Source: a virus (Duplodnaviria > Heunggongvirae > Uroviricota > Caudoviricetes). From it: a DNA stretch of 64,000 bases. The position numbers were made by a program, and so were the translations under genes. Under the pieces are notes generated by a model, which saw nothing but the letters and a program-made list of their open reading frames with translations, ran no database searches and had not been told where the DNA came from. The DNA is taken from IMG/VR virus record IMGVR_UViG_3300033463_000024; one strand, 5' to 3'. Below, piece by piece: positions 131-61,625 of this stretch; the first letter of the stretch is position 1, and each line of letters begins with the position of its first letter.

Positions 131-132
131 GG

Positions 133-44405: not shown

Positions 44406-44444
44406 CAAACCTAGCATTTATGCACGTGGCCGTCAACCGGCAAC
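44406..44444 (-). promoter_or_regulatory. conserved promoter GTTGCC...CATAAATGCTAGGTTTG (TAnnTTTG -7 box)
   Basis: consensus-like copy; leaderless arrangement. Confidence 0.55.
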
Positions 44445-45336: not shown

Positions 45337-45369
45337 ATCTCAACAAGCTCCATTTTGACTTCCAGAGGC

Positions 45370-45729: not shown

Positions 45730-46018
45730 TTGGTTTTACTCCGCACAATTTGAATACGCTTAGGATGAATGCTGCTACCTTCTTCAAGTCCTCAGTACGG
45801 GCGACTGTGCATCCTTCTCCCTCGGTATGGTTCTGAATCCACACGTCATACATCGGGCCCATATTTGTCTCGATAATGATATCGACATCATCGGTAACGC
45901 TCAGATGGAGACGGTTTGAGCCAACGCTCATACGGTTTCCATCAGCGTCGATAACTTCCTTGACACTGGTCGCCTGCAATATGGTCTTGACCAAGTCTTC
46001 TATCCTAGTATCCTTCAT
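45707..46018 (-). CDS. hypothetical protein (103 aa)
   Basis: ORF. Confidence 0.45.
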   Translation of the reverse strand: MKDTRIEDLVKTILQATSVKEVIDADGNRMSVGSNRLHLSVTDDVDIIIETNMGPMYDVWIQNHTEGEGCTVARTEDLKKVAAFILSVFKLCGVKPNGSKKEG

Positions 46019-46021
46019 GGT

Positions 46022-46603
46022 CTAATCCTTATACAGTTGATACTTCTTGCTCAACTTACGGCTAATTTCATCCGGGAGTGGCTTGAACCAGATGCCAACG
46101 CGGCACCGGCCCACACCATCCGCGTCGGTAAATTCCGGTGTCAGGTCGGTCTTGCAAACATCGTCGATATACCCATAGTCAATGAGCGGGACAAGACCAA
46201 GTTCCTTGGCGACCTCTTCCACCTTCATTAGATGGTTAAGGTTCTTTGCCTCACAGATTGTCTTCGTGAAGATATCATTGATGTAACCATCCCAGATTTC
46301 TTTCGGGATTTCAAACGCAATCGTCTTCGTAGGACGGGAGTTTTCCGCCTTGTATTGGAAGGTTTTCTCACCCCGTTCATGAGCAGCTTTCGCCGCAGCA
46401 TATACACCAGGATGACGATACAACATCCAATAATCGGGGTCGTCCGGGGTTTCTACTGGCAGTATATCGTATTCGTTGTCCTTGACGACACTCATATGCT
46501 TAAATACGTTTAGCCAGTAACATTCAGCACAGTGGCCAACCATGGCGGCAAGCTTGCCGGCATGAAGGTTCAAGTCCTTCCTGATTATAAAAAGTCTTCT
46601 CAT
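46022..46603 (-). CDS. Pth2-like protein (peptidyl-tRNA hydrolase PTH2 family N-terminal motif RRLFIIRKDLNLHAGKLAAMVGHCA)
   Basis: matches the conserved v.vvR.DL....GK.aAQ..H.a pattern of PTH2; the C-terminal half differs. Confidence 0.4.
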   Translation of the reverse strand: MRRLFIIRKDLNLHAGKLAAMVGHCAECYWLNVFKHMSVVKDNEYDILPVETPDDPDYWMLYRHPGVYAAAKAAHERGEKTFQYKAENSRPTKTIAFEIPKEIWDGYINDIFTKTICEAKNLNHLMKVEEVAKELGLVPLIDYGYIDDVCKTDLTPEFTDADGVGRCRVGIWFKPLPDEISRKLSKKYQLYKD

Positions 46604-46604
46604 A

Positions 46605-47708
46605 TTACTTACCCATTACATAATTGATTCGGTCAGTGGGAATCCATTTCTCGATCCATTCTTTGATATCCGGTGTGACCTGTTGGTGAAGCTTGTCTCG
46701 CCAGTGCCAGATAAACATCCGGGCTTGACTTTCCTTGTCCCACTTATACTCGACCATGGCATCGAGTAACCCGTACTTGTATAAGAGGACATCCTCGGCA
46801 AGCAGCCTGACAAACTGGATTTCATCCGGAAACTCATTGGCCGGAAAGTCATACTCCTCGGCAGTGTATGTCTTACCCTTGTACTCGAAGGCATCACGGA
46901 CCTCAGAAAAGTTAAGGTCGGGAAGCGCCTTACAGAAGTCACGGGCGTCTTTGTAAGCATCGATGAAACCTTGAGTAAACCGGCACTTGCCCCGTTTGCC
47001 CACAGTGTCATGAACCATGTAGTGACGTATTATGCCAAGCTGGTCTCGCCTGTCCTTGTAGGATGAAATATCAGGATAGGTGTCGTACGGGCGCAAGTCG
47101 GTCTTGAGCAGCGGTTCCTTTTTGAAGGCCTCCATTTTAGATTGCAGCTCCTTGGCGTACTGGACAAATTCGTCACAGAAACCATTGTCACCATATGCCT
47201 TGGCACTGCACTTGTAACAGATTCCCTTCCTGTGGAGTGGAATGTAGAACTCTATCGACATGTCGATTGTGCGAGACACCTTCTTGCCGTATCCGAGGTC
47301 ACGCTCGACCTTGATAATCGAGTAATGCGAATCCAGTTTGCACTTACCATCAGTCAGGTTAGGATGGTCTTCAAGAACCGACGCACGGAGCTTTTCGTAG
47401 GCAACCTGGAGATATCCATCCGGATACCACCCGTACTGGGCCGGAGAACTGTTCCCGGTGTTGAAGTCGGTCGAGACCACATGGAGCATCTGCATGCCCG
47501 TAATCCAATTTCTCAGGTATTCCCTGAGCACTTCCTGCCAATCCATGGCACGGAGACGTTCCATGATATCTTGGCCGCGCTTGGTAAGCATCTTCCCGCT
47601 TTCGTAATCGTGTAGGTCCAAAATCCTCGGGGAATAGTAGGCCGGATCCTCCGGCGTACGTGTCTCGAAAAATTCTCGACGCTGCGCTTCCTCGTTCTCG
47701 CTACTCAT
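46605..47708 (-). CDS. hypothetical protein (367 aa), first of three unknown genes translationally coupled downstream of the phosphoribosyltransferase
   Basis: ATGA-type overlaps along the operon. Confidence 0.55.
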   Translation of the reverse strand: MSSENEEAQRREFFETRTPEDPAYYSPRILDLHDYESGKMLTKRGQDIMERLRAMDWQEVLREYLRNWITGMQMLHVVSTDFNTGNSSPAQYGWYPDGYLQVAYEKLRASVLEDHPNLTDGKCKLDSHYSIIKVERDLGYGKKVSRTIDMSIEFYIPLHRKGICYKCSAKAYGDNGFCDEFVQYAKELQSKMEAFKKEPLLKTDLRPYDTYPDISSYKDRRDQLGIIRHYMVHDTVGKRGKCRFTQGFIDAYKDARDFCKALPDLNFSEVRDAFEYKGKTYTAEEYDFPANEFPDEIQFVRLLAEDVLLYKYGLLDAMVEYKWDKESQARMFIWHWRDKLHQQVTPDIKEWIEKWIPTDRINYVMGK

Positions 47709-47989
47709 AATGCAGTTCCTTTACACAACTTGTCTACTTGCCCCCGCAACCAGTCCACCTCGGGCACCGAGGCGCCAACTGGGCAAATTCCATCGATATT
47801 ACCCTTAGTATCGTCCCATGACTGGATGGGTTTCGGGTAGGCGTTAATCGTATCTACCCGGAGTAATTCTTCCAGCCGTTCCTTAACCACATCGTCCAGA
47901 TTGGAATCCCAGATGGTCTTCAAGGCCATCTCGACATTCTCGTAATAGTCATCCCAATCGATAGGGCAGATGGAGCATTCGCCTACCAT
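47705..47989 (-). CDS. hypothetical protein (94 aa)
   Basis: overlapping start/stop. Confidence 0.45.
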   Translation of the reverse strand: MVGECSICPIDWDDYYENVEMALKTIWDSNLDDVVKERLEELLRVDTINAYPKPIQSWDDTKGNIDGICPVGASVPEVDWLRGQVDKLCKGTAL

Positions 47990-48549
47990 ATGGAACCCGT
48001 CTTGTCAAAGAAGTTATTGCGCACCTTGTCAAGCAGCTTGTCAAGCTGGTTACCGGTAAGCACCTGGTCTACCCTGGAAATCCGAAGATCGTTCCCGGTT
48101 GCCACAGAGACCGAAAGCTTGGAGCCACCATACGGAATTTCAAGCTTGTCCTTTCCAGCAACCTTGAGCATCTTTCCCTTGACGGAAACAAACCCATTGC
48201 CAATGAAAATAACCTTTTCGACCTTGGTAATGATGAAATTTTCCTTGATAGGAACACCTTTGCCCATCATCATGGGCAACCGGTCATACTCAAGCACCCA
48301 TTTGTCCCGGTAGAAGTCATCCAGAAGCTTAATGCGGCTAGTCTGGTCATCCTTGGAAACCGTCCGATAATTCTCCTCCGCCACCCGCAATGCCTCCCTG
48401 GCATTTTCAAGCGCCTTCCAAGCCAATTCCTTCTTCGGGTCCGGCTTGGAAAAACGATAGGTCTTAACGGGAACCACTTCCCCGGTCGGAGAGGTGATTG
48501 TAGCAGTCTCGGACTCAAATAAGTCGTTTAACGGGCCGAGCTTGCTCAC
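47983..48549 (-). CDS. hypothetical protein (188 aa; GTG start with a CAGGAGG SD overlapping the PRT stop)
   Basis: SD-supported GTG; there is no in-frame ATG until far downstream. Confidence 0.45.
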   Translation of the reverse strand: MSKLGPLNDLFESETATITSPTGEVVPVKTYRFSKPDPKKELAWKALENAREALRVAEENYRTVSKDDQTSRIKLLDDFYRDKWVLEYDRLPMMMGKGVPIKENFIITKVEKVIFIGNGFVSVKGKMLKVAGKDKLEIPYGGSKLSVSVATGNDLRISRVDQVLTGNQLDKLLDKVRNNFFDKTGSIW

Positions 48550-49940
48550 TGGCAAACCTCCTGCACCTCGTCGATGGAGCTGTAATTGAATGTCCGTTTT
48601 ACGAGTTCCACATGGTCCTGGTCGGGGCACATGGTCTTGCCGATGGAATCGGACAGTTTAACAGCCCAAACCCACGGTGCATCGTTGTGGGCCTTGACCT
48701 TCACAACCTTCATGACCATGGAAAGCGGCTTGCGCTCGGCATTGCCCTTGAACTTCACGATGGAAGCACTGAGGAATGTCCCGATGCCGAAGGCAATCTT
48801 GATACGGAGGTTGAAGTGCTCGGCGATGGCGATGGACTTGTCCACATCGAGACTGTCGCTCCAACAGCCAACCTTGGTGGCCGGGTCAATCTTCAACTTC
48901 TTGTAATGGGCAATGAGCATTTCGCCCCAAGTGTACGGGTTGCCGGAGTCATGCCGGCAGCCATCGAACACCTTGGCATAGAGCTTGCCGCGACGAGAGC
49001 CTGCACCGAAATCTTCGAGGAACGCCTTGAAGCCAAAGTTATCGGACAAGGCAATACCGAGATCACCGCCGAATTCGTGCATCCAGTCTTCAAACACCTG
49101 AGTCTGGCACTTGCGGAGCTTTACATCATCGAGGCCCTGGTAGACCGCGTAAAGCTCATGCGCAAAAGTGCCGATAGCCTTACAACCAAGCTTGATAGCG
49201 AGGTACACATTGGATGTACCCACAAACACGCCCGGAAGTTCCTTCAAGAGGGTGGACACCATGTATTCGTTCCATTCGTCGGATACGCCACGGCGGATAC
49301 CGAAGTCAGAAACGGTAAACTTGATGCCGCGTTCGGATGCTTCCTTCCACTTCTTGATTACTTCGGCAAGGTTACGCTTGGAAGCTTCCCAGTCGATTTC
49401 AAGGTCGTCGAAGTAGAGGTGCTGCACAATCTGCAACACGTAGATTTCAAACCAGTAGACATCCATCTGGGAGCCTTCTGCCCAGATTTTGAGCCCACAT
49501 TCATCGTCCGGATCATATTCGCAGTGAATGTATTCACGCTGCAACTGGAAGCGTTTCAGTTCACGGAGGAAGTCATCATCAATCCACGGTGCAACTTTAC
49601 CAATTCCAGTAAGTTCCCAATCCGTATAGCGGAGGGTGCAAAGGTGGTCGAGTTCGCGATTGATTGCATCGTGCAAGTAATCAAGGCGTACACCCTTGGA
49701 ACGGAGTTTAAACTCCCAGCGGGCCTGTACATTACGGTGCTTGTGGAAGTACAACTGGCCCATGCTGTACTTGTATAAATCGGTTGCAGTCAAATGTTGA
49801 ATAATCCATTTATTCGGGTCCTTTTTCTTGTACTGTTTCGGAAGAGCCGGCGTAATGAGCCTTGCATCCGGCTTGCGACGACCCTTTCTGTTCGGCATTG
49901 CCAAGCTAAGTTTCTTCTTTTCTGTAAGAATCTGTGCCAT
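48546..49940 (-). CDS. nicotinamide/nicotinate phosphoribosyltransferase (NAPRTase family; NadV/PncB-like), with a Lys-rich ~35-aa N-terminal extension
   Basis: TDLYKYSM N-terminal motif, SDFGIRRGVS (PRTase signature) and GTSNV; 464 aa. Confidence 0.7.
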   Translation of the reverse strand: MAQILTEKKKLSLAMPNRKGRRKPDARLITPALPKQYKKKDPNKWIIQHLTATDLYKYSMGQLYFHKHRNVQARWEFKLRSKGVRLDYLHDAINRELDHLCTLRYTDWELTGIGKVAPWIDDDFLRELKRFQLQREYIHCEYDPDDECGLKIWAEGSQMDVYWFEIYVLQIVQHLYFDDLEIDWEASKRNLAEVIKKWKEASERGIKFTVSDFGIRRGVSDEWNEYMVSTLLKELPGVFVGTSNVYLAIKLGCKAIGTFAHELYAVYQGLDDVKLRKCQTQVFEDWMHEFGGDLGIALSDNFGFKAFLEDFGAGSRRGKLYAKVFDGCRHDSGNPYTWGEMLIAHYKKLKIDPATKVGCWSDSLDVDKSIAIAEHFNLRIKIAFGIGTFLSASIVKFKGNAERKPLSMVMKVVKVKAHNDAPWVWAVKLSDSIGKTMCPDQDHVELVKRTFNYSSIDEVQEVCQ

Positions 49941-49952
49941 TTTGTACCTCGT

Positions 49953-50399
49953 TTAACACCATTCGCCAACCATGAGGTCATATCCCAGGCCCCAGTTGAT
50001 CTTGTTTAATTCCTTGTATTCAACATTTCCCATTTCATCATGTCGAATTTCGGGGACATGCCGATGCAAATGCGTCTTCTGGTCCCATTCGTCCAAAGGA
50101 ACATCGGGTAGTCTGCTTTTCGTCCCGGAATACTTATGCTCCGGCGACAGCTTTCCACGTTCGGTTATGATGGATAGCATTTCTTTCTTAGAAATCCGCT
50201 CACCATATTCATCTTCGATAACGAAACGGCGAGAATTCCATAGTTTTCTCCAATCATCAAGACTCTCGGCTATGCCCGGAATCACATGAAGTGAAAACGC
50301 CCACCCATAGCTCGATTTTCCAATATGGAGTCCATAATTGGACCTATATGGCCAATTATGAGGCAACTCCTTATTTCTCAGATAATAGTTGGTACCCAT
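49953..50399 (-). CDS. hypothetical protein (148 aa)
   Basis: ORF. Confidence 0.5.
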   Translation of the reverse strand: MGTNYYLRNKELPHNWPYRSNYGLHIGKSSYGWAFSLHVIPGIAESLDDWRKLWNSRRFVIEDEYGERISKKEMLSIITERGKLSPEHKYSGTKSRLPDVPLDEWDQKTHLHRHVPEIRHDEMGNVEYKELNKINWGLGYDLMVGEWC

Positions 50400-50402
50400 A
50401 CA

Positions 50403-51029
50403 TCAACCGTCTAGTTTACCAAAGAATGCATTGAACTCAGCTTCCACATCGTTAACAAGGATTGCCTGATATATTTCAAATCCCGTATCTTCACCGGTAT
50501 CCTTTCTGAGCGCATCACAAATCCATTCCATTCGATGCTTCACAATCAATTCAATAGGATTACCGTGGAGCTTGAATGGCGTACGGAGAATGAAGTACGG
50601 ATCGAGTTCGCCGGTGGCATCCTGAAGGTCACAAATGTAGTTAAATTGTGGACCACGTTCCACATGAAAACGCGACTTCCACTGGCCATTTTTATAGAAA
50701 CAACCAACACCATCAAGAAGCCTTCTAGTAGAATGAATCCAGGAATTCAAATCCTTGACCACCCGCATGAGCCAGCGACGCTTCATATTGCGTTTCAAGT
50801 CATGCCTGTACACAAGCTTGTGAAGTTTAAGTTCATGCTGCAAAATACTCTTCGCACTATCATCCACACCGTCTTTCAACGCTTTCTGGATACCATGAAT
50901 ATCCTTGATATTCAAGTTCTGCCACTTAGAAATCCTATCAATTTCCTCTACAGCACGCTCACCGGCGCAGTTACCCCAGTCCTGGATGATTTTCAGTGCC
51001 TTTTTCACTTCTGCAAATGTAAGTTCCAT
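50403..51029 (-). CDS. hypothetical protein (208 aa)
   Basis: ORF. Confidence 0.5.
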   Translation of the reverse strand: MELTFAEVKKALKIIQDWGNCAGERAVEEIDRISKWQNLNIKDIHGIQKALKDGVDDSAKSILQHELKLHKLVYRHDLKRNMKRRWLMRVVKDLNSWIHSTRRLLDGVGCFYKNGQWKSRFHVERGPQFNYICDLQDATGELDPYFILRTPFKLHGNPIELIVKHRMEWICDALRKDTGEDTGFEIYQAILVNDVEAEFNAFFGKLDG

Positions 51030-51040
51030 CTCAAATCTCC

Positions 51041-51841
51041 TTAATTGGCAAAAAACGAATACACGCTAGTTCTTATGGCACCAATCTGAATAGTGCCTTC
51101 CAGCAAGTTTGTATCAACGCCGATTAGTAAATTTAAATGCTTTCGGTATTCATCAGTCAGGAACTCATCAAACATCGTTGTGGGAGGTGTGCACATGACC
51201 ATTTTCTTCATGCACATACCGACAAAGCACTGTGCTGCCATCAAAACATCGCAATCTGCCGGTCTAAGCAGCTGTCTCGTAATAATATCGGCAATCTGAT
51301 GGGAAATTTCCGAATGTTTTTCAAGTGAAACAATTTCATGCGTGTATCTGTTAAGCACATCTTCCATTATTTCAATACGGGCGCAATACATCTCTCGAAC
51401 GAAGATTTTCTGTAAATCCTCGGTAGTCTGTTTGCTCCACATATCCTTGATATCCAGACTGTAATCATAGGTCATGCGTCCGCCGCATCTCTCATATTCA
51501 AAATGAAGCGAATTTCCATTTTCCTGATTGAATGGAATAAGAATCTCATTCACAAATCGTTCAAGATTATTATTATACTCACGAGGGGTAAATTGAGGAA
51601 TCGCAAGTGGAACCACATTACATACGTCATAATGACCGGTTTCCAGGTCAAATTTCATGGAAACTTCAAAAGCATTCACTTGTCCATGGTTCCAACGGAA
51701 GAACAGGTACTTAATGTCCTGAATTTTGTCAGTACGGACGGTCCACGGGTCCTTCTGGAGCTTGATTGCCCAGTGGTAGAACTCAGTTTCCTGTCCATCC
51801 TGGGCAGTGCATCTTACGTCGTCAAATTCACTTTCAGCCAT
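51041..51841 (-). CDS. hypothetical protein (266 aa)
   Basis: GAAGGA SD before ATG 51841. Confidence 0.5.
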   Translation of the reverse strand: MAESEFDDVRCTAQDGQETEFYHWAIKLQKDPWTVRTDKIQDIKYLFFRWNHGQVNAFEVSMKFDLETGHYDVCNVVPLAIPQFTPREYNNNLERFVNEILIPFNQENGNSLHFEYERCGGRMTYDYSLDIKDMWSKQTTEDLQKIFVREMYCARIEIMEDVLNRYTHEIVSLEKHSEISHQIADIITRQLLRPADCDVLMAAQCFVGMCMKKMVMCTPPTTMFDEFLTDEYRKHLNLLIGVDTNLLEGTIQIGAIRTSVYSFFAN

Positions 51842-51842
51842 A

Positions 51843-52103
51843 TTAGTCCTTCGTATCTTCGAGAAGCTGCGGGAGGTCTTCCTGCATCTTCTTTGTAAGT
51901 TTCTGGTAAGCACGGGTCATCGAATCCTCGGAGAAACCGCGCCAGGATGTGCGGGCGGGGTATGCACGGTCGGCGCCTTCATCGTCACACTCAATCACGA
52001 TGCACCACCCGAAGATGTGTAGGAAGGTGTTGATAAAAAGAAGAAGTCCTGTGCTCTGGAACTCCTTCCAAGTGGTCTCTTTCGGCGTCGTGTACAGTGC
52101 CAT
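51843..52103 (-). CDS. small membrane protein (86 aa)
   Basis: AAGGA SD; the longer ORF would overlap the tRNA. Confidence 0.45.
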   Translation of the reverse strand: MALYTTPKETTWKEFQSTGLLLFINTFLHIFGWCIVIECDDEGADRAYPARTSWRGFSEDSMTRAYQKLTKKMQEDLPQLLEDTKD

Positions 52104-52121
52104 GTTGTCATCCTTTGCTAA

Positions 52122-52194
52122 AGCGGGAGACGAGATTCGAACTCGCGACCTAGGCAATGGGAATGCCTCGCTCTACCACCTGAGCTACTCCCGC
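52122..52194 (-). tRNA. tRNA-Gly (anticodon CCC); CCA not encoded
   Basis: cloverleaf folded by hand: acceptor GCGGGAG/CTCCCGC, D-arm GCTC/GAGC, anticodon stem AGGCA/TGCCT with loop TTCCCAT, T-arm GCGAG-TTCGAAT-CTCGT. Confidence 0.85.
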
Positions 52195-52450
52195 ATGGTG
52201 GGCCTCCGTGGTAAATCACGTCACGGTAACGGGTGGTCCAACCGTTTCCCCTTTTACCCCAGGGGAAGGGTGCCTAATTTCTTCCTTATGGGAGCGAATT
52301 TCCAGAAAGGGGAAAGGCATCCCCCGCCGCATGATATCTGCATGGGCACAGAACCATTTACTGATGATTCAGGACCGCTCATCGGCTGCCTGGTCATGAC
52401 CCCAAGCGACACTCCACTGATTCTTGTGGCAGAACGGACGACTGTTATCC

Positions 52451-52480
52451 CGAATATAGCAAATTTCCAGCCATATCGGA
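52451..52480 (-). promoter_or_regulatory. promoter-like box AAATTTGCTATATTCG (minus) about 260 nt upstream of the tRNA
   Basis: variant consensus without a clear GTTGCC element. Confidence 0.35.
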
Positions 52481-52495
52481 GGATTTTCCTAAATT

Positions 52496-53302
52496 TTATT
52501 TCAAGTCAATGATTGGCATGATTTTGTCATTGGCCACAACGTCGGGGAGCTCGCCATTCCAGGTTTCAATCCACTGCAACGTGATATATTCCTTGCTGTT
52601 TTGCTGCTTTAACGCCTTGAGACGGGTGGCAATTACTACAGAATCAGCCTTGGCAGCAATAACCTTGGCAGCAGAATCAGCCTTGGCAGCAATCTTCTTC
52701 TGTTCATTCTGGTATTCAACAGCCTTAAGGATATTCTTTTCCTTCAAGGAATTCTGTTCAGCAATCTGCTTATCCAAGATACTCTTGTTAAACTGGGCGT
52801 CAAACTTGAATTCATAGATGGTAAAGCCGTCAAGAATGATATGGGAATTGGCTGAATCCAGTTTGTTACGCAAAGCCTGTTCCATACGGCGACGGACTTC
52901 TTCACGCTTCTGCAACATTTCTTCTGCAACATATTGTGGGGTAACACCGGTAATGGTTTCACGCATCTTCGGCTGCAAGATAGTCACGACCGCATCAGTA
53001 CCGAACTGGCCATACACTTCATCAACCTTCTTTGGATCAATATGATAGTTCACGTTGACCCCGACGGTAACTTCCTGCATGTCCTTTGAGCCGGCACCGA
53101 CCCGCATGGTTTCAAGCTGCGTCTTGACCGGAATCTTGACCACCTTCTCAGTGATGACATTGTAGAAGTTGAGACCAGGTTCCATTGTTTCGCTCACCTT
53201 ACCGAAGTTGAGAACGACACCGCGTTCAGTTTGGTCGATCTGGGAGCATCCAGTGAACGCGAAGAGGATGAGAATTGCTAAAAATGCAATGATTTTTTTC
53301 AT
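52496..53302 (-). CDS. SPFH/band-7 (prohibitin/HflK-like) lipoprotein; signal peptide plus lipobox FTGC
   Basis: MKKIIAFLAILILFAFTGCSQ followed by ERGVVLNFGKV...PGLNF, typical of the SPFH domain. Confidence 0.7.
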   Translation of the reverse strand: MKKIIAFLAILILFAFTGCSQIDQTERGVVLNFGKVSETMEPGLNFYNVITEKVVKIPVKTQLETMRVGAGSKDMQEVTVGVNVNYHIDPKKVDEVYGQFGTDAVVTILQPKMRETITGVTPQYVAEEMLQKREEVRRRMEQALRNKLDSANSHIILDGFTIYEFKFDAQFNKSILDKQIAEQNSLKEKNILKAVEYQNEQKKIAAKADSAAKVIAAKADSVVIATRLKALKQQNSKEYITLQWIETWNGELPDVVANDKIMPIIDLK

Positions 53303-53321
53303 GTTGTTTTATCCTTGTTTG

Positions 53322-53765
53322 TTAAAAATTCGAAATAGGCTGTGCTTGCTTCTGGATGGCATCCAGTTCACTGATACAGGCCTTCAAATGGTCAATATCC
53401 GACTTGTGCCCGTCATCAAGCTCGCACTGGTCAAGAAAAGACTGCTTGACTTTGAGCTCGCCGACAAACATGCGGTAAAGTTCATAGGCATAGCGGAAGC
53501 GATTCTTCTGTGTCGCACCGCCATGGCACGGAACATTCTTGCGGTCTTTCTTCTCGGCATCCCGCATGATAGCTTTAAGTTCCTTGCCAAGACGCTTCTT
53601 GTCGCTTTTCGTCATGAGCAGGGTAGCCTGTTCATACTGTGCACAGCAGATAAGCTTGGCAAAATCGCTCGTAATCTTGGGCTTCGATTCACGTGTACCC
53701 AGGATTTCCCATACAACCCCGATGCCGAAAAGCACGATTGCGATAATGGTAATGATGTCGGTCAT
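53322..53765 (-). CDS. membrane protein (N-terminal TM; 147 aa) next to the SPFH gene; NfeD-like partner?
   Basis: AAAAGGAG SD before ATG 53765; the longer ORF N-terminus is junk-like. Confidence 0.45.
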   Translation of the reverse strand: MTDIITIIAIVLFGIGVVWEILGTRESKPKITSDFAKLICCAQYEQATLLMTKSDKKRLGKELKAIMRDAEKKDRKNVPCHGGATQKNRFRYAYELYRMFVGELKVKQSFLDQCELDDGHKSDIDHLKACISELDAIQKQAQPISNF

Positions 53766-53778
53766 TTGATTACTCCTT

Positions 53779-54141
53779 TTAGTGATGACTGATGTCACCG
53801 GACATTGTGTTAATATTACCCGAAACGGAACCACCCACGTCCACGTCGCCGGAACTTGTTTCAATATTGCCGGCACTTCCGCCGATTGTAATGTCGCCGC
53901 TAGAGCTTGTGCAGTTTCCTGCATCGCCAGTAACCTTGATGTATCCGGAACTTGTTGTAACAGAGCCGACCGTACCTTCGATTGAAATGTTGACAACCTT
54001 TTCCTTGCAGACAATCACTTCATCGCCAACAATGATGTTGTCACCATCAATCGTGATGCTTGAACCCGACGGGGCCTTGATTGTCTTTCCATTGATTTGG
54101 ATGCAATTTCCATTGATGCTATTACATACCAAGATAGCCAT
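53779..54141 (-). CDS. bactofilin-like (polymer-forming beta-helical repeat) protein (120 aa)
   Basis: G/S/T/D/I-rich repeats (..GDITIGGSAGNIETSSGDVDVGGSVSGNI..); AAGGAG SD. Confidence 0.5.
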   Translation of the reverse strand: MAILVCNSINGNCIQINGKTIKAPSGSSITIDGDNIIVGDEVIVCKEKVVNISIEGTVGSVTTSSGYIKVTGDAGNCTSSSGDITIGGSAGNIETSSGDVDVGGSVSGNINTMSGDISHH

Positions 54142-54520
54142 TGATTCTCCTTAACGTTTCCTTATCCATAAATTTACTATCAGTCAGCAATGCTGTCACC
54201 TTGTCAAGAAAGACCCTAAACGGTATGCTGATCCACCTGACATGATTTTTCGGGTCATTGTGCGAATCTTCTCCAAACGGGTTCAATAGTTCCATGTGCC
54301 AGCACTTGTCCTTCGGCCATTTAATATGATGCTCCACTGTAAGAACAACCGGAGCAACCACCGACTCACTATCTTTCGGATACATCTTAATCCGAGAAGA
54401 GTCATCGGAAACTTCAATGCCATATTCGTCAGTTTCCCTTGCAATAGCCTGCTTGATTTCATCTTCGGTAAACTTATCCTGGATAAAATCATTAAATATT
54501 CTGCCAAGTACACCTTCCAT
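54122..54520 (-). CDS. hypothetical protein (132 aa)
   Basis: ORF. Confidence 0.45.
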   Translation of the reverse strand: MEGVLGRIFNDFIQDKFTEDEIKQAIARETDEYGIEVSDDSSRIKMYPKDSESVVAPVVLTVEHHIKWPKDKCWHMELLNPFGEDSHNDPKNHVRWISIPFRVFLDKVTALLTDSKFMDKETLRRINGYLGM

Positions 54521-55074
54521 TAAATTTCCTCCGGGTGTTCAAACGTTATAATTACTTCCACATTGTGGTCGTACGTCGTCATGGAACGAGTCTCATACCA
54601 CCTATTGTTAGTATCGTCGATGAGGATAAACTCATCGGTTTCGGTGTTATCTATTCTTGACGGGAAACTAGTTTCATCCATGGCTTGCTGCACGAAACAC
54701 ATCTGTTTATTTAATCCATAGCGATTCATTGCACCAGGGATATGCAGGTCATCGATTTCCAGTTCATCCTTAGTATTGACCCACTTATGCTTGTAAGCAC
54801 ACTCGATAGAATCATCCTTGGTCCATACCCGACCACGATTTTCCGCCGGAATTTCCAGTGCGTCGAATAGCCACTTTACGACGTAATCCCGAATTTCATC
54901 CTTAGTCTTCCACCCCCAAGTAAACAAACTTACCTTGACGGGCATTCCATGTTCATGTTCAGCAATTTTTTCCAAGACATAGCTTGAAATTCGCTTACAT
55001 TGCTCCTCCAAAAGCGTACAACTGTACAAGTCGTCAATGAGCGTATTCTCGATGTCTATAAATATTTCCGTCAT
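54520..55074 (-). CDS. putative HAD-like phosphatase (motif FIDIENTLID at the N-terminus; DxExT variant)
   Basis: starts 3 nt after the promoter box; motif call is weak. Confidence 0.4.
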   Translation of the reverse strand: MTEIFIDIENTLIDDLYSCTLLEEQCKRISSYVLEKIAEHEHGMPVKVSLFTWGWKTKDEIRDYVVKWLFDALEIPAENRGRVWTKDDSIECAYKHKWVNTKDELEIDDLHIPGAMNRYGLNKQMCFVQQAMDETSFPSRIDNTETDEFILIDDTNNRWYETRSMTTYDHNVEVIITFEHPEEI

Positions 55075-55077
55075 GTT

Positions 55078-55110
55078 CCAAATATAGCAAATGCCGGCAT
55101 TGCCGGCAAC
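55078..55110 (-). promoter_or_regulatory. conserved promoter GTTGCC-N13-TTTGCTATATTTGG
   Basis: consensus copy. Confidence 0.6.
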
Positions 55111-55184
55111 TATATGCAATCCTAGATTTTATGGAACCCGAAGCCAGGCCCATCCATCATGAAACGCTGTCCGCTCAGTTCTTC

Positions 55185-56525
55185 TTGACATACTCCCACG
55201 ACTAAAGTCGTGGGATTCTGGGAGTTGCCACAGATGGGCAACATGTCCCAAAGGTAGATGCCCCTACCTTACATAAGTTACGGGCGGCATTTCTATCCCT
55301 ATCGTGTTCCGCACCACAGCTAGGACATATCCAATGACGGATAGATACATCCTTTAGGTCGTGGTTCTGATAACCACATTCGGAGCATAATTGCGACGAT
55401 GGATACCACTTATCGGCGTACATTACGGTCTTACCAGTCTTATGAGCTACATATTCGAGAATACTCAAGAAAGCATTGAACCCGAAATCGTACATAGACT
55501 TCTTGTACTTCTTGGATAGGTTGGCCAAGTCTAGCGTCTCAAACACCATAACATCGTAGTCTCGGCAGAACTGCCGAGCCAACTTCCAGTGCATATCGGA
55601 ACGCTGATTGGCTACTTTCTCGTGTAGCTTCTGCAATGTACGCAGCGAACCTCGCTTACCCTTGCTCTTTCGGTATTTTTCTGATAGGTTTCTCAATGAT
55701 TTGAGGTTCTTCTGCAATATTTTAGGCATACTACAATCGTCGCCGTTAGAGGAAACCAAGAAGTCGTGCAGACTGAAGTCGAAACCAACGATTTCACCCG
55801 ATTTAGTCCACTCTGTCTGTGTACATTCTTGCTCAACGACGATGTATATGTAGAATCCGTTGCTCTTGCGTTTGACAGTTAAGGTCTTGACCTTGCCATC
55901 AAAATCCCTGCTGTTCCAGTAGGGAAAATCCTTCTTGCATATCTTAACTCTGTTAAAGTCGTGGAATTTATATCCAGCTTGCTTCGTTGTGAATGAACGG
56001 TATTTAGCCGTCTTCTGAAAGTGAGGCGGATTGGTCTTCTTTCCAGCCTTCAAGTTCAAGAAGAACAACCGATATGCTCGGTCTATCCTATCTGTGATGT
56101 CTTGAATGGCTTGCGACGGAACCTCATTCCACTCTGGATATTGTCTCTTCAGTTTGGTTAAGTGCTTCTGCAACTGGTATTTATTAAGCATCTTATGATA
56201 GATACCGTAGTACCGACGGTGCAGAGCAATGCAGTGGTTGTATATCCGTCCAGCAACTACAAGTATATTGTTGAGATACCTTAGAGCATCTCGATTGTAC
56301 AGCTTGTACTTGTATGTCTTCAATTCAACCATAGATAAGCAAATGCCCACAGAACGCTTAATTTGCCCGTCAGCATTCCGTGGACATTTAAAATCTAACC
56401 TTGATAGGAGGACGGGCAAGAACTCTTATCATAGAGAAGTTTATAACAATCTATAAAAACTTTTCTTAATTGGCAACCATTTTCATCATCCCACGGCTGA
56501 AGCCGTGGGCTTTCCGTTCAGCGTA
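55185..56525 (-). mobile_element. IS200/IS605-family (IS1341-type, tnpB only) insertion element; subterminal hairpins CCCACGACT-TTA-AGTCGTGGG (55195..55214) and CCCACGGCT-GA-AGCCGTGGG (~56497..56516)
   Basis: TnpB ORF flanked by two near-identical hairpins; boundaries approximate. Confidence 0.6.
55202..56332 (-). CDS. tnpB: TnpB (IS605 OrfB) RNA-guided RuvC nuclease, with a zinc finger
   Basis: RuvC-I GFDFSL, RuvC-II VFETLDL, CSECG...CPSCG zinc finger and RuvC-III DRDRNAARNL; N-terminus TYKYKLYN. Confidence 0.85.
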   Translation of the reverse strand: MVELKTYKYKLYNRDALRYLNNILVVAGRIYNHCIALHRRYYGIYHKMLNKYQLQKHLTKLKRQYPEWNEVPSQAIQDITDRIDRAYRLFFLNLKAGKKTNPPHFQKTAKYRSFTTKQAGYKFHDFNRVKICKKDFPYWNSRDFDGKVKTLTVKRKSNGFYIYIVVEQECTQTEWTKSGEIVGFDFSLHDFLVSSNGDDCSMPKILQKNLKSLRNLSEKYRKSKGKRGSLRTLQKLHEKVANQRSDMHWKLARQFCRDYDVMVFETLDLANLSKKYKKSMYDFGFNAFLSILEYVAHKTGKTVMYADKWYPSSQLCSECGYQNHDLKDVSIRHWICPSCGAEHDRDRNAARNLCKVGASTFGTCCPSVATPRIPRL

Positions 56526-56574
56526 AAATTCAGGTGTTTGCATTTCGGCGCAGTTACCTTATGCAGCCATTTCC

Positions 56575-56883
56575 TTATTGCTTCGAACATTCGGACTCCC
56601 ATTTTTCAATGAATTTAACCATGTCGTCAGTCATCGGGATAGGATGCAATATGTCATCGCCGTACCAGCGGCCCTTTACACGAGCCTGAAGGCACAGATT
56701 GATGTCATGTTCCCATTCATCCTCGGAAATATTCCAGTCAGCCGGCGGCTTATTGGGTAAATGGAAAATAGGTTCAATAATAGAATGGTCATGCACATTC
56801 TTAGCCAGGTGATAACTACGAAAACCGCCTGCAACGCCAATAACCAGATTTGGCAGAGGTATGTCAGGAAACATCTTGTGCAT
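56575..56883 (-). CDS. hypothetical protein (102 aa)
   Basis: GGGGGA SD. Confidence 0.45.
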   Translation of the reverse strand: MHKMFPDIPLPNLVIGVAGGFRSYHLAKNVHDHSIIEPIFHLPNKPPADWNISEDEWEHDINLCLQARVKGRWYGDDILHPIPMTDDMVKFIEKWESECSKQ

Positions 56884-56885
56884 GG

Positions 56886-57965
56886 CTATCCCCCGATCGT
56901 CTTGATGTAATCTTCAAGGATTTGGTTATGGTGGAACGCCAAGTGAGCCTTGCGGGCTACGCTCAACGGGAACCATGCTGCCTCGGCAGCATCGTCGTCA
57001 CCCTTGACTGCCCCGAAAATCCCACGAACATAGACACCCACGTCATACGCCCAGTGTCCAGGAACATTCTCGCGAGGGTCTTCCGGGATATACACCTTCA
57101 ATTGGTGAACCTGATTAGGGTAGAGTACAAGCCCCGTTTCCTCATGGAGTTCACGACAGCTGCAATTCTCGATGGGTTCATGCGGATTGGTAAAGCCACC
57201 AGGGAGACACCAGTAGTTAGCGAACGGCCAGCGCTTGCGGCGCACTAGAAGCACCTGGTCCTCTCGACCAATGGTAGGTTCGCCAATGCTGTTGATAACC
57301 ACGGAAGTCACCGTAACCGAAGGTTTTGGATAATCGCCTGGCTTGTAGTTGGCAAGTTCCTGATGTTCAGTGTTCCAATGTATTAGCGGATTATCCTGGT
57401 GATATAATCCATGCTGGAAAATATACCCAAGAACTTGCGGCGAAACCGACATTCCCCCATACATGGGGTTCATGAGCATGTCACTACGGACAGCTGTGGA
57501 CGACACATCGGGAACATTTACGAAAATAGGGTTGATATCGCCTCGGGTACCAAGTTCCGTATGGAAATTGAAGTTTTTTCCACGGTTGAATACACGGATG
57601 CTGTACTTGTCGATGAGCTTGTCAGAATCTTTCCACTTGCCGGCCAGAAGGGCTTCAAGCTCATCCATGCCGATAATGAGGTCAATGTCCGGATTCTTGT
57701 TCTCGGATCCGGAAACATATGTTCCATACACTGTTTCGAGATTATCGAAGGTACGAACCGACTGCTTATGGATGTTCAGTTTCGGAAACCGGGCAATCAA
57801 CATGCCATAACGGTCCTGGAATGATGCATTGTACTGTTTTTCATCATTGTCGGTCACATAGACATGGACTTCCGGGTAGTTTTCCAAAAGATACTGAATA
57901 ATTGCCTCATGGGCAACGGTAAGCGGGTCAAATGCGCCGCCATAAACTGCAATCTTGTGTTCCAT
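56886..57965 (-). CDS. nadM: bifunctional NMN adenylyltransferase / Nudix ADP-ribose pyrophosphatase (NadM-Nudix)
   Basis: N-terminal IAVYGGAFDPLTVAH nucleotidyltransferase motif; C-terminal Nudix box GGFTNPHEPIENCSCRELHEETGL. Confidence 0.8.
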   Translation of the reverse strand: MEHKIAVYGGAFDPLTVAHEAIIQYLLENYPEVHVYVTDNDEKQYNASFQDRYGMLIARFPKLNIHKQSVRTFDNLETVYGTYVSGSENKNPDIDLIIGMDELEALLAGKWKDSDKLIDKYSIRVFNRGKNFNFHTELGTRGDINPIFVNVPDVSSTAVRSDMLMNPMYGGMSVSPQVLGYIFQHGLYHQDNPLIHWNTEHQELANYKPGDYPKPSVTVTSVVINSIGEPTIGREDQVLLVRRKRWPFANYWCLPGGFTNPHEPIENCSCRELHEETGLVLYPNQVHQLKVYIPEDPRENVPGHWAYDVGVYVRGIFGAVKGDDDAAEAAWFPLSVARKAHLAFHHNQILEDYIKTIGG

Positions 57966-57968
57966 AAT

Positions 57969-58259
57969 TTACCAATTCTTTATCCCGGCTGGGTAAGATT
58001 CATCAAATTTAACATAATATGTGCCTTTATATCCCCGTTCAATGGCAGTTTTAACGAACTGAATCGCGTCTTTTTCCGATTTAAACTTCACTTCTCGCCA
58101 TGATTCGGAATACATTTCAAAAGCACCCATGGCAAACTCGGCTACCATCAGCCTATAACGGATCCAGTAACCAAATATAAACCAGCCATGCTTCCACTGT
58201 GGTATCCACCAGTCGTCAATCTTCTTGACGCGATGCTTCTTATCAATGTAAGTCGTCAT
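57969..58259 (-). CDS. hypothetical Trp-rich protein (96 aa)
   Basis: ORF. Confidence 0.45.
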   Translation of the reverse strand: MTTYIDKKHRVKKIDDWWIPQWKHGWFIFGYWIRYRLMVAEFAMGAFEMYSESWREVKFKSEKDAIQFVKTAIERGYKGTYYVKFDESYPAGIKNW

Positions 58260-59067
58260 CCGGAAATTCCTTCTTCAAATTTTCAACCCACTGGTCACAC
58301 TTTTCGTGCCAGTCGGTAATGGTCTGCCTGAATGCCTTGTCACCAAGCACGCCGTTGATAATATGCTGACGGTCAGTGATGTTCCCGTTGACCTGCAGTT
58401 TCAGGCCGAACTCCACTGCCGCACGGGTGAAATTCAGCGGGACATCCGCCTCGTAGAAGTCATTCTCGTTGGCAATGGGCGCCGGGGCGCACTGGCCAAC
58501 CCATCGCGACACCTTGGGTGAAAGCAGCACTTCCCGCATGAAGTCATGCACGGGCTTGCCATCCTCGCCGATGGTTGCCTTGCAGTCGGCATCGGCCAAT
58601 GTATGGAGCCTAGGGAACCACTGGTGGGTCACAATCTGCATGATGCGGAACCTGGACTTCATTTCACCGAGGACCAGGGCGTTCATGTGGTTCTCGATGA
58701 CCCAGTGAAGCGGGACGATATTGGGGATGACCCCACCAACCTCGTTTCGGATCCATTCGTTGAACACATCCAGGCTGTAAAGTTCATGTCCGGCCATGTT
58801 CTTGCCCTCGTTCTTTTCGAGTGCACGCTTCTTGCCGGCATCGTGGAACAGGGCAATCATCACGTCCACCCAGTCATGGCCATCGCGTAAATTCTTGATT
58901 ACGAGGGCGGTATGGTCCCACACGTCACCCTCGCAGTGTACCTTCGGATGGGCGACCCCCATCATTTCATTTTCGATGAACGGGAAGAAATCTCGGTTTT
59001 CGAGGATGGTCGAGACCGGATGTTCCGAGTTGAAAATGTCTATTGCCTTGTTGATATTAGGATTCAT
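58243..59067 (-). CDS. HD-domain phosphohydrolase (H...HD motif: HPKVHCEGDVWDHT...LFHDAGK)
   Basis: ATG 5 nt after the promoter box. Confidence 0.6.
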   Translation of the reverse strand: MNPNINKAIDIFNSEHPVSTILENRDFFPFIENEMMGVAHPKVHCEGDVWDHTALVIKNLRDGHDWVDVMIALFHDAGKKRALEKNEGKNMAGHELYSLDVFNEWIRNEVGGVIPNIVPLHWVIENHMNALVLGEMKSRFRIMQIVTHQWFPRLHTLADADCKATIGEDGKPVHDFMREVLLSPKVSRWVGQCAPAPIANENDFYEADVPLNFTRAAVEFGLKLQVNGNITDRQHIINGVLGDKAFRQTITDWHEKCDQWVENLKKEFPDDDLH

Positions 59068-59069
59068 AC

Positions 59070-59103
59070 CCAAAATGTAGCAAAATGGGCAGAAGGTGGC
59101 AAC
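59070..59103 (-). promoter_or_regulatory. conserved promoter GTTGCC-N13-TTTGCTACATTTTGG
   Basis: exact consensus copy; abuts the stop of the upstream gene. Confidence 0.65.
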
Positions 59104-61625
59104 TAGTCCTTCACCAGGAACAAAAACCGTCTGCGGGAGTTTGTAAACTTGTTGTACTGTATGAAGCCCTCGTCGGTAATGTACTGCCCATCGCCGACCA
59201 TAAGTCTCTCTTCTTGCCGTTCGGTCTCAGTGTGCATTATGAGCTGGTCGCCAACAAGATCAACCCTTGCCGACCTAAACCAATGAATCTGCGTTTTCAC
59301 GTTCCCATCAGTGTCAAGCAAGTCCGTGATACATACTTCCTGCGACACAAACGGGGCCACATTGCCAAATGTTGAATTTTGAATAAACCCGGTGTCTTGG
59401 CCAGCAATTTTAACCAATGAACCAAACCCCATCAAGTCCCGCATGATATCCGGCGCACTCTTTCCAGTTTCCCGGATTTCATCATCCTCATCCTCGTTAC
59501 TGTGAACTATGTCGCACCTTCCCTGGTCAGTCGTAATATACAGAGATGGATATGAATCATCCTTATGTAATTGTTTCGGTATCCTGACACCGCACATGGT
59601 AAACGCACGGCCATTAGACCAGGAATTGGAGCATATTTTGTTGCAATTTCCAGCACCGCTTCGAATAACCTTTCCACCCAACGCCGAATACAGGCGATAC
59701 AGGTCATCAATGGTTGGCAAGTGCCAGCCGTCCGGTATGGTCTCCTTGATATCCGCATGCGAATACAATACACCCCGCGAACCATCTTCAGCCGTCACGC
59801 TGACGGTAATGGACGGATTGAGAGCGCGTATAATCGCTTCCGTCTCCGGGGTTAAAGCATCCGCCTTGTATCTATATGTGACGAGTTCCCTTGCCTTACC
59901 AAACTGTAAATAGTTACGCGAATGCGGCGTGTTGGAATGGGTCAATAATATAAGTGACGCTCGGCCATATGTGCCGGAGTTGCCTACCTGGTCGGTTATC
60001 CTAAACTCCCCAATACCCCGGCCATTGGTATATTCCTTAACAAGCATATCGGTAACAACTGTAACACTCGTCTCGTCATGCGGGAGGTTCGCTTTCTCCA
60101 GTGCATCACGCACGGTTCGCTCACGTTCATCACGCACTTGTGCCCAGTAGTTGTCAGCCTGGCCAAAATCAAGACATGACGACAAGTCCTCTAATAAAGA
60201 GCCATCGATGATGGTATCGCCTATCTTGACCCCTTCAAGAAACACGTTATATATCGCATCATACACATCTATGTTGCCACCCATACTAACATAGCATCTG
60301 GAGGAAGTCTTTACCACATAGTTATTCGGCATATCATGGTGAACATACACCGAATCATTAACCCGGCCATTGCATTCATGCGTTATGACATTTGCCGTCT
60401 CAGCATCGGCAGGATGTTGCCAGTCAATCGAACATGTCAGTCCTTCTTCTGTGCGGGTAACACACAGGATCGGAAGGAATACCTTGATTTCCGGGCGTAC
60501 GGGGCATAGTATGGTTTCCAGTTTTTTCAGATTTGCCGGAATTTCCGGAATTTTCGTTGGAGAGTACTTGAGTGGTTCGGCCATCCACGTCCTGCCTCCA
60601 ATAGTCTCCGTACGGTAGGTCTTGCCATCCCTCTTGTCAGTGAATGTTCCGGACCGGCGAATGCGGTTCTTGCCAAGGCATATACTCTTAGTAATCTTCT
60701 TCCTATCAGCAATCACCTTGGCATTGTTTGTAAGTCGCTCCTCGCGCATGCGGACCGCCAGCTCACGATATGTATCATGCCCATAGGGTGGGCATAGTTC
60801 AAAGAATGGGCCACCAAGCAAGTCCGAAAGTTCAACCTCGTCGTACTTGTTGTCGCCCTTGCGGACATCCACATTGTCATGGGCATGGTTCCACCGGTTA
60901 TTCACATGGACTAGACGGCCACCGGGCCCGATGTCGATACCCAGCATGGATTCGCCATACAGTTCATCGCTTTCGGTCAAATTCTCGAAACCAGGAAGAA
61001 CGGCCAGGTAAAGTTTCACCGGCAGCTTCTTATCCCCGGCACTGGCCATCCGATAATGGTCAAACATGCTCTGTGAATTGAGGTGGCACCACACATGCGG
61101 CTGGGTGTATTCGGCATATTTGTTCGCCGTTTCAAATTCATCAAGAGGGATTATCTCATAACGTCTCTGTCCATACTTCCGTCTGCGGAGCATGCGTCGC
61201 ATCGCGCTCCATTGCTTGGCTATCCTCTGGCCATATATTTCATCAAGTTCCTTGAATGACGGGCGTCTACCGTCAATACCAAGATAACGGTCATACTCAC
61301 TCGAATGGGCAATGGAAATAATGCGAATTATGTCATGAAGACGGCCAATCGGCCCCGGTTCTTCATCACCTGTACCAAGCGACAATTCGCCAAACGCAAT
61401 TCTTGCGGCACCCGGCGCGAAACGGATCTTGCACTGTCCGTCCCTGAAAAAGTGGGTACGGACCTCCTGGTATGCTGCACGGGTCCAGGAAGAAATCCCC
61501 CTTTTCTGGGCAATTTCCTCATAGATAGTCTGCAGCCGCCCCCTGTTGGGTAGGGCCATCAGGACCTTCTTGGTGTAGCGGTAGGCATCGCCTTCTGAAC
61601 CATGTGCAGTTTCGTTCGGTAGCAT
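59103..61625 (-). CDS. large protein (840 aa) with a Fibrobacter-succinogenes-major-paralogous-type domain (FTDKRDGKTYRTETIGGRTWMAEPL ... DGWHLPTIDDLYRL)
   Basis: domain signature recognised in the translation; N-terminal ~330 aa unassigned. Confidence 0.6.
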   Translation of the reverse strand: MLPNETAHGSEGDAYRYTKKVLMALPNRGRLQTIYEEIAQKRGISSWTRAAYQEVRTHFFRDGQCKIRFAPGAARIAFGELSLGTGDEEPGPIGRLHDIIRIISIAHSSEYDRYLGIDGRRPSFKELDEIYGQRIAKQWSAMRRMLRRRKYGQRRYEIIPLDEFETANKYAEYTQPHVWCHLNSQSMFDHYRMASAGDKKLPVKLYLAVLPGFENLTESDELYGESMLGIDIGPGGRLVHVNNRWNHAHDNVDVRKGDNKYDEVELSDLLGGPFFELCPPYGHDTYRELAVRMREERLTNNAKVIADRKKITKSICLGKNRIRRSGTFTDKRDGKTYRTETIGGRTWMAEPLKYSPTKIPEIPANLKKLETILCPVRPEIKVFLPILCVTRTEEGLTCSIDWQHPADAETANVITHECNGRVNDSVYVHHDMPNNYVVKTSSRCYVSMGGNIDVYDAIYNVFLEGVKIGDTIIDGSLLEDLSSCLDFGQADNYWAQVRDERERTVRDALEKANLPHDETSVTVVTDMLVKEYTNGRGIGEFRITDQVGNSGTYGRASLILLTHSNTPHSRNYLQFGKARELVTYRYKADALTPETEAIIRALNPSITVSVTAEDGSRGVLYSHADIKETIPDGWHLPTIDDLYRLYSALGGKVIRSGAGNCNKICSNSWSNGRAFTMCGVRIPKQLHKDDSYPSLYITTDQGRCDIVHSNEDEDDEIRETGKSAPDIMRDLMGFGSLVKIAGQDTGFIQNSTFGNVAPFVSQEVCITDLLDTDGNVKTQIHWFRSARVDLVGDQLIMHTETERQEERLMVGDGQYITDEGFIQYNKFTNSRRRFLFLVKD

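Follow-up and report, generated by a model that had tools for sequence, protein, structure and literature searches.

A viral DNA stretch of 64,000 nucleotides (IMG/VR record IMGVR_UViG_3300033463_000024, Caudoviricetes), which we call the window, carries two minus-strand genes through which the phage probably encodes two steps of the deamidated (Preiss-Handler) route of nicotinamide adenine dinucleotide (NAD+) salvage, together with an ADP-ribose recycling activity. One gene encodes a PncB-type nicotinate phosphoribosyltransferase, and the other encodes a fusion protein in which a NadD-type (not NadM-type) adenylyltransferase precedes an ADP-ribose-type Nudix hydrolase. An earlier note on this DNA had instead proposed a complete two-enzyme NAD+ reconstitution pathway, in which Nampt and NadM-Nudix would act as in Vibrio phage KVP40. 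This proposal is not supported, since the phosphoribosyltransferase is PncB and the adenylyltransferase is NadD-type, so that NadE and PncA would also be needed. The elements concerned are:

48546..49940, minus strand: PncB-type nicotinate phosphoribosyltransferase, 464 residues (Pfam, TIGR01514, PDB 1yir).

57390..57965, minus strand: NadD-type nucleotide adenylyltransferase domain, residues 1–192 of the fusion protein (NCBIfam, PDB profile, fold).

56886..57353, minus strand: ADP-ribose-type Nudix hydrolase domain, residues 205–359 of the fusion protein (Pfam NUDIX, PDB, fold).

Both open reading frames (ORFs), 48546..49940 and 56886..57965 (359 residues), were borne out, as public contigs that are 100% identical over 38546..64000 give the same gene calls. 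The motifs that had been read from the two products are also present: DLYKYSM, SDFGIRRG and GTSNV in the phosphoribosyltransferase, and GAFDPLTVAH with a complete Nudix box (GGFTNPHEPIENCSCRELHEETGLV) in the fusion protein.

A profile search, which the earlier note had named as a check, places the phosphoribosyltransferase in the NAPRTase family: PF04095 (NAPRTase, E 2e-57) matches residues 208–454 and PF17767 (NAPRTase_N, E 7e-21) residues 53–172, each profile being covered nearly whole. Testing for the PncB-type class as TIGR01514 / PRK05321, we found that the PncB equivalog model TIGR01514 is passed with 337.2 bits against a cutoff of 269.55 (NCBIfam), that NF003704 scores 379 against a cutoff of 379, exactly at its threshold, and that no NCBIfam Nampt model matches at E≤0.01. 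phrog_448, the PHROG Nampt family, matches only partially, with 50 bits. All six PDB matches at E≤1e-3 are nicotinate phosphoribosyltransferases, with no NAMPT among them. The best of these, 1yir (‘Nicotinate phosphoribosyltransferase 2’), aligns end to end with E 1e-61, and its GTMAHEW is aligned with GTFAHEL, conserving the histidine of the GT-x-AHE motif that we take to be the phosphorylation site of the ATP-coupled (autophosphorylating) class, as in Salmonella PncB. A tblastn search of 50,697 phage records (E≤1e-5) returned 13 matches, the annotated ones being pncB or nicotinate phosphoribosyltransferase, with no NadV-carrying phage among them. By these matches the product is unambiguously PncB-type and Nampt/NadV is excluded, which overturns the suggestion that it is as close to NadV as to PncB.

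A basic N-terminal extension of this protein relative to its homologues, remarked upon earlier, was confirmed. It comprises 26–40 residues, and of the residues encoded by the first 40 codons (49821..49940, minus strand), 13 are Lys or Arg; ahead of the conserved domain, codon 15 is the sole other in-frame Met. The window PncB is 70% identical to the PncB of L008, a related locus with the gene cassette described below, whose 416-residue protein lacks the extension, and 59% identical to that of a second such locus, L009, where the extension is shorter (426 residues).

Within the fusion protein, Pfam detects CTP_transf_like (E 3e-07) and NUDIX (E 2e-14). The NCBIfam NadD models NF000842 (1e-19) and TIGR00482 (2.5e-16) align with residues 3–190 over their whole length. 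A profile of the N-terminal domain built from 13 family members and searched against the PDB matched the NadD structures 5llt (1.5e-18) and 2h29 (1e-17) best, followed by many bacterial NadDs; human NMNAT1 was matched only partially, and no NadM-type protein appeared in the top 60 matches. An AlphaFold model based on 26 family members was confident (predicted local distance difference test, pLDDT, 88.1; predicted template modelling score, pTM, 0.83), and its N-terminal domain superposes on NadD structures 8aih, 9fyb and 5deo with template modelling (TM) scores of 0.76–0.78 and root-mean-square deviations (rmsd) of 3.4–3.8 Å. The motifs GxFDPxTxxH and SSTxxR, here GGAFDPLTVAH and VSSTAVR, are invariant across 26 members that share 36–87% identity.

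The Nudix half is matched in the PDB by 2fml (1e-15), by the NrtR structures 3gz8 and 3gz5 and by 2qjo, and in NCBIfam by NtrR (2.7e-13) and NadM-Nudix models (5e-13). In the structural model, it can be superposed on the ADP-ribose-bound Nudix domain of NrtR (3gz8, TM 0.77), and 2qjo is also matched. The Nudix box GX5EX7REUXEEXGU is complete, with G256, G257, R271, E272, E275 and E276 invariant among the 26 members. The protein thus has its domains in the order of bifunctional NadM-Nudix enzymes (2qjo; 2qjt/2r5w of Francisella tularensis), and its ADP-ribose-type Nudix domain, in which the box is intact, is homologous to theirs. It differs from them in that its N-terminal domain belongs to the NadD branch, and that its domain arrangement does not superpose on theirs (rmsd ~15 Å). 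The label ‘NadM-Nudix’ given to it previously is therefore not retained: the N-terminal domain is NadD-type by both profile and fold, and the NadM-Nudix models (NF0037xx), at 38–49 bits against cutoffs of 354–449, align only with about residues 150–357, reaching the Nudix half only.

These results bear on the two-enzyme pathway known as NARP2, in which NadV/Nampt and NatV/NadM-Nudix of Vibrio phage KVP40 rebuild NAD+ through amidated intermediates (bioRxiv 10.1101/2024.02.11.579819). If the window encoded such a pathway, the phosphoribosyltransferase would convert nicotinamide to nicotinamide mononucleotide (NMN) and the fusion protein would convert NMN to NAD+. The layout at the Pfam level, a phosphoribosyltransferase beside CTP_transf_like plus NUDIX, is indeed that of NadV and NatV, and a whole-chain fold search ranks NadM-Nudix proteins first. 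This ranking is loose (rmsd ~15 Å, TM 0.37) and the sequence match is confined to the Nudix half, while the N-terminal domain is NadD-type; moreover, the PncB equivalog is passed and no Nampt model, PDB NAMPT or NadV phage is matched. The PncA and NadE genes found beside the fusion gene in relatives, described below, would also be superfluous in an amidated route. Countered by both subfamily and context tests, the NARP2-type reading is largely refuted, and we consider it highly improbable. The window does resemble NARP2 in pairing a phosphoribosyltransferase with a bifunctional adenylyltransferase-Nudix protein, and in a plausible capacity to rebuild NAD+ during infection. Unlike NARP2, in which two enzymes suffice to lead from nicotinamide through NMN to NAD+, PncB and a NadD-type enzyme would require NadE, plus PncA for nicotinamide.

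The strongest evidence for the route comes from gene context in relatives. The fusion family looks rare and phage-restricted, comprising ~33 full-length clusters among 5.8 billion proteins, all of them metagenomic. An alignment-based scan found ~20 members on IMG/VR viral contigs of 72–348 kb, and six full-length NadD-Nudix fusions in GTDB species-representative genomes, all on gut or ruminal contigs of metagenome-assembled genomes (MAGs); these six are probably mis-binned phage contigs, because their taxonomy is mutually inconsistent. Scanning IMG/VR and GTDB for exact peptides of the fusion protein alone gave no match, whereas the alignment-based scans found these members. We counted genes within ±10 kb of the fusion gene at 23 related loci whose fusion protein is at least 28% identical, with the following result:

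PncA-like isochorismatase: 20 of 23 loci.

NadE (NAD synthase): 19 of 23 loci.

PncB: 19 of 23 loci, or 21 with copies cut by the locus end.

PncA, NadE and PncB together: 17 of 23 loci.

The usual arrangement is a contiguous cassette in the order pncB, fusion gene (nadD::nudix), pncA, nadE. The phage PncAs retain a D/K/C set and a D/H/H set, presumably the nicotinamidase catalytic triad and metal site. Because PncA, NadE and PncB regularly adjoin the fusion gene, the fusion protein can be assigned to the deamidated Preiss-Handler route. PncA and NadE in these cassettes also lend indirect support to PncB preferring nicotinate to nicotinamide. The claim that the two window genes are linked NAD+-salvage enzymes gains from this count as well, with PncB lying within 10 kb at 19 of 23 loci though only 13 of 50,697 phage records have it. 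At locus L007 a gene for a microbial-type poly(ADP-ribose) glycohydrolase (PARG) stands directly ahead of the fusion gene. A microbial-type PARG gene (PF10021) also lies just outside the window, at 5875..6714 of locus L004 (window-equivalent ~64912..65751), with 99% identity to the PARG of the sister locus L091 and 53% to that of L007; its presence suggests that the neighbourhood of the salvage genes deals with ADP-ribose more broadly.

In the route that we propose, PncB would join nicotinate and phosphoribosyl pyrophosphate (PRPP), probably with ATP coupling, to give nicotinate mononucleotide (NaMN), an activity expected from its family. The NadD-type domain would then adenylylate NaMN to deamido-NAD, as its fold, motifs and context suggest. 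Since the phosphoribosyltransferase is PncB and the adenylyltransferase NadD-type, the product of the two phage steps would be deamido-NAD. NadE, encoded elsewhere by the phage or by the host, would be required to convert this to NAD+, and a host PncA would let nicotinamide enter, so that the whole route would run from nicotinamide through nicotinate, NaMN and deamido-NAD to NAD+. NadE and PncA, the two enzymes further needed, are exactly those that relatives encode beside the fusion gene. The Nudix domain, with its intact box and ADP-ribose-type fold, is predicted to cleave free ADP-ribose, yielding AMP together with ribose 5-phosphate, from which the host's PRPP synthetase could resupply PncB. 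A raised or restored NAD+ pool during infection is the likely purpose, which may serve to counter NAD+-depleting defences, to supply NAD+-linked enzymes such as the window’s Tpt1 or the flanking PARG, or both.

Whether NadE is needed depends on the substrate of the NadD-type domain. If this domain took both NMN and NaMN, as eukaryotic NMNATs do, NAD+ could be made from NMN without NadE, and PncB would feed a parallel branch. The T-x-x-H motif (FDPLTVAH) is as in eukaryotic-type enzymes, the best PDB match, 5llt, having FDPITYAH, and the fusion gene of this clade has no NadE beside it. We nevertheless regard dual specificity as unlikely: no NMN source (Nampt, NadR, PnuC) is seen in the window, the family at large is associated with PncA and NadE, and the family-invariant residues are identical in clades with and without the adjacent cassette. 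Five positions are mutated in the E. coli NadD variant 6kg3, which we take to have been engineered toward NMN use; they correspond to I22, R71 (a family-invariant Arg), K112, F126 and V151 here, and none of the variant’s substitutions is present. This mapping is suggestive, not decisive, for the preference between NaMN and NMN.

It is also conceivable, though quite unlikely in our view, that the fusion protein acts chiefly through its Nudix activity, destroying NAD-capped RNA or immune signals derived from ADP-ribose, and that its proximity to PncB is incidental. Phage enzymes are known that degrade ADP-ribose-based signals and feed NAD+ synthesis (PMC13232231), and in Pfam the Nudix half scores better than the adenylyltransferase half. 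The adenylyltransferase motifs are, however, invariant across the family, and PncB, PncA and NadE accompany the fusion gene with far more regularity than a chance neighbourhood would allow.

Several points weigh against deamidated salvage by this phage. The NadD models fall below their curated cutoffs, NF000842 with 70.8 bits against 167 and TIGR00482 with 60.3 against 112.45. The N-terminal domain is, on these scores, a divergent NadD-like domain, short of a certified equivalog, and for this reason the preference between NaMN and NMN rests mainly on gene context. More generally, the enzyme functions of NadD-Nudix family members are predicted ones, and a counter-defence role is drawn only by analogy with other phage pathways (NARP1–3, below). 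In this clade, furthermore, the fusion gene and PncB lie 7–9 kb apart, separated by unrelated genes (8–10 kb in L090 and L091). The DNA of this phage that we examined amounts to 79.6 kb, namely the window with 7.6 kb of right flank and 8.0 kb of left flank, of a 160 kb JGI contig; of the phage Preiss-Handler set, pncB and the nadD-like gene are seen here, while neither PncA nor NadE was found in these 79.6 kb. NadE was likewise not traced to the phage’s own contigs in lists of NadE homologues and clusters (40 of the 354 members of the largest cluster) or among the matches listed from one metagenome scan.

Related genomes suggest where the missing steps may lie. The syntenic loci L090 (fusion protein 54% identical) and L091 (49%) have the same split layout, with PncB downstream. 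L091 is part of IMG/VR genome UViG_3300037454_000941, a sister genome of 223,861 bp that is collinear with the window. It carries a stand-alone NadE of 248 residues at ~123 kb, and its fusion gene, at ~163 kb, is 39 kb away. The window phage probably either has a NadE gene at the same distance (~39 kb) from its fusion gene or draws on NadE of the host; collinearity would put such a gene ~33 kb past the right-hand end of the window. The sister genome is absent from the best 80 of 133 PncA matches, ranked with the closest PncA type as reference, which is evidence for the absence of PncA there, not proof. PncA is probably supplied by the host. Remnants of PncA or NadE pseudogenes beside the fusion gene were considered and rejected, the best tblastn E-values being 0.5–9.

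At the nucleotide level, the sister genome and this phage share 95.6% identity over a block of 5 kb and ~70% elsewhere, suggesting a recent exchange between related phages. The block holds genes for a PolyA_pol-type nucleotidyltransferase, PARG and RlaP, and corresponds to L004 3929..8897 (window-equivalent ~62729..67697) and L091 2058..7025.

That the two salvage genes belong to different operons, as the earlier note had it, was not confirmed: every gene lying between them shares their strand, and promoter or terminator matches are no commoner than in shuffled sequence. Directly downstream of the fusion gene lies a TnpB / OrfB_IS605 gene (PF01385 and PF07282; 55202..56419, minus strand), a lineage-specific insertion judging by its absence from the syntenic relatives L090 and L091. 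A GC-rich hairpin, CCCACGGCTGAAGCCGTGGG, occupies 56490..56509 in the gap just upstream of TnpB and could be an end of the element. The TnpB copy near the cassette in L008 is unrelated (28% identity). We rejected TnpB as the cause of PncA and NadE loss, as L090 and L091, which are without TnpB, are also without adjacent PncA and NadE. Also between the salvage genes are a tRNA-Gly gene (anticodon CCC; 52122..52194, minus strand) and, adjoining it, a Band_7 (SPFH) family gene (52496..53302).

The NAD+-consuming enzyme to which the earlier note had linked the salvage genes is:

36070..36717, plus strand: Tpt1/KptA RNA 2'-phosphotransferase, which uses NAD+ (PF01885, phrog_5470, PDB 6ede/6e3a).

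The gene itself was confirmed and matches the public gene call. PF01885 (PTS_2-RNA) scores 135.5 bits against a gathering score of 26 (E 2.7e-39), phrog_5470 matches with 5e-50, and the protein aligns end to end with 6ede/6e3a (E 2e-56); the motifs LRH, RALYGHS and RQYVHxS and the catalytic Arg-His-Arg-Arg positions are conserved, and the NCBIfam Tpt1 equivalog models are below cutoff (192 against 231). The link to salvage proved weak, with Tpt1 lying 12 kb away on the other strand, and it probably belongs with a set of RNA-repair genes and not with the salvage unit. Other genes that hint at RNA repair are RlaP (62744..64000, minus strand, cut by the window end), a faint PTH2-like match (46022..46603, minus strand) and a PolyA_pol/CCA-type nucleotidyltransferase in the flank (L004 4249..5484). 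An RNA ligase 1 gene adjoins PncB in L008, L093 and L107; no RNA ligase was found in the window.

The source is a large gut or rumen phage. The origin of the window from a large phage rests on four indirect points, namely that relatives are classed as viral in IMG/VR, that the left flank carries an Amidase_2 gene, a typical endolysin family, that the window contains a tRNA gene, and that its genes are densely packed and rich in ORFans. Profile scans of the window proteins gave very few family matches and no structural genes; 30 further proteins scanned gave significant matches only to DUF1848, the WDGH domain and phrog_7313, and precomputed tables added a few more:

1243..2001: DUF1848, family match.

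6349..7053: WDGH domain, family match.

20503..21798: SSO2105_N, from precomputed tables.

40759..41508: phrog_7313, family match; also R2K ATP-grasp, from precomputed tables.

62291..62725: dUTPase, from precomputed tables.

The rest of the window is genomic dark matter. It includes an 840-residue ORF without a Pfam or PHROG match (59103..61625, minus strand), which is a variable large gene, since L090 has an 887-residue protein at this place and L091 only ~1.1 kb of sequence. Relative to the 160 kb JGI contig, the window represents a strain-level variant, with 100% identity over 38.5..64 kb and 99.8% over 19..41 kb (19291..41247 compared with locus L003); the part at ~8..11 kb is divergent or inserted relative to that contig (~8020..11163 compared with locus L378). 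The ENA contig ERZ27257207 k141_4823155 matches 1..12739 at 100%. Megablast of the region against deposited phages gave no match, and thus no annotated close relative there.

The proposed deamidated route has counterparts in bacteria and in other phages. It resembles bacterial Preiss-Handler salvage in using the four families PncA, PncB, NadD and NadE in the same reaction order, the phage PncB even passing the bacterial equivalog; the bacterial NadD stands alone, unlike the phage NadD-type domain, which is fused to Nudix. In phages, the Preiss-Handler pathway is already noted in the literature: passages of a survey of gut ‘NAD-jumbo phages’ catalogue, by annotation, pncB-nadD-nadE clusters such as that of Kuafu_71 (Microbiome 2024, PMC11662467). 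As far as those passages describe them, the NAD-jumbo phages share with our case phage-borne pncB, nadD and nadE, large phages, ruminant or other gut metagenomes and a pathway logic that holds for both this phage and the sister genome; unlike their clusters, the genes here are dispersed and NadE was not found in the DNA examined. In the same passages the word ‘Nudix’ has 0 occurrences, and there is no Nudix fusion, PARG or pncA within a phage cluster. A survey of viral NAD+ and ADP-ribose systems lists, for phage NAD+ synthesis, only NadV with NadM/NadR (PMC9503650). Our literature search found no prior description of the NadD::Nudix fusion, of its cassette with PncA and sometimes PARG, or of the dispersed variant.

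Three phage NAD+ reconstitution pathways (NARP1–3) have experimental support, and none of them proceeds via nicotinate. NARP1 (Adps and Namat) and NARP3 (PnuC and a NadR-like enzyme; PMC13464706) both restore NAD+ depleted by bacterial immunity. They differ from the present genes in using unrelated enzymes and other intermediates, ADP-ribose pyrophosphate (ADPR-PP) in NARP1 and nicotinamide riboside in NARP3, and neither uses nicotinate intermediates. By analogy with these pathways, phage-boosted NAD+ salvage as a counter-defence is plausible here, given NadE, plus PncA for nicotinamide, from elsewhere.

The same biochemistry might instead form an auxiliary metabolic module, with no specific link to NAD+-depleting immunity, that increases the NAD+ available for phage replication in a gut or rumen rich in nicotinate, or makes up for weak salvage in the host. 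We hold this to be possible but on balance doubtful. An ADP-ribose hydrolase within the fusion, PARG in its company and PncA in most cassettes suggest the handling of NAD+ breakdown products, not plain vitamin uptake. What speaks for a metabolic role is that no PncA was detected in this clade, in which nicotinamide released by NADases could not enter without the host, and that the gut jumbo phage survey, in the passages mentioned, reads pncB-nadD-nadE sets as metabolic and reports complementarity between phage and host pathways (PMC11662467).

Beyond the two salvage steps themselves, we put forward a broader reading tentatively. The NadD::Nudix fusion may mark a phage-restricted system in which both products of immune NADases are built back into NAD+, with nicotinamide passing through PncA, PncB, the NadD domain and NadE, and ADP-ribose being returned to the PRPP pool by the fused pyrophosphatase, often together with PARG. 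Such a system would amount to a fourth NARP type, working via deamidated intermediates, and the window would hold a derived, dispersed and PncA-less version that depends partly on the host.

The outcome is a corrected annotation, as the window should be read as PncB plus NadD-like/ADP-ribose-Nudix and not as NARP2, and a lead to a phage NAD+ module known from sequence. The dispersed version, with two or three genes, offers a natural comparison between the steps that a phage must bring and those that it can leave to its host. Should the cassette of pncB, nadD::nudix, pncA and nadE, to which PARG is sometimes added, prove to be a counter-defence, it would escape anti-defence annotation tools that search for Nampt, Namat or NadR alone, and phages would have recruited the full bacterial Preiss-Handler pathway, fused to ADP-ribose recycling.

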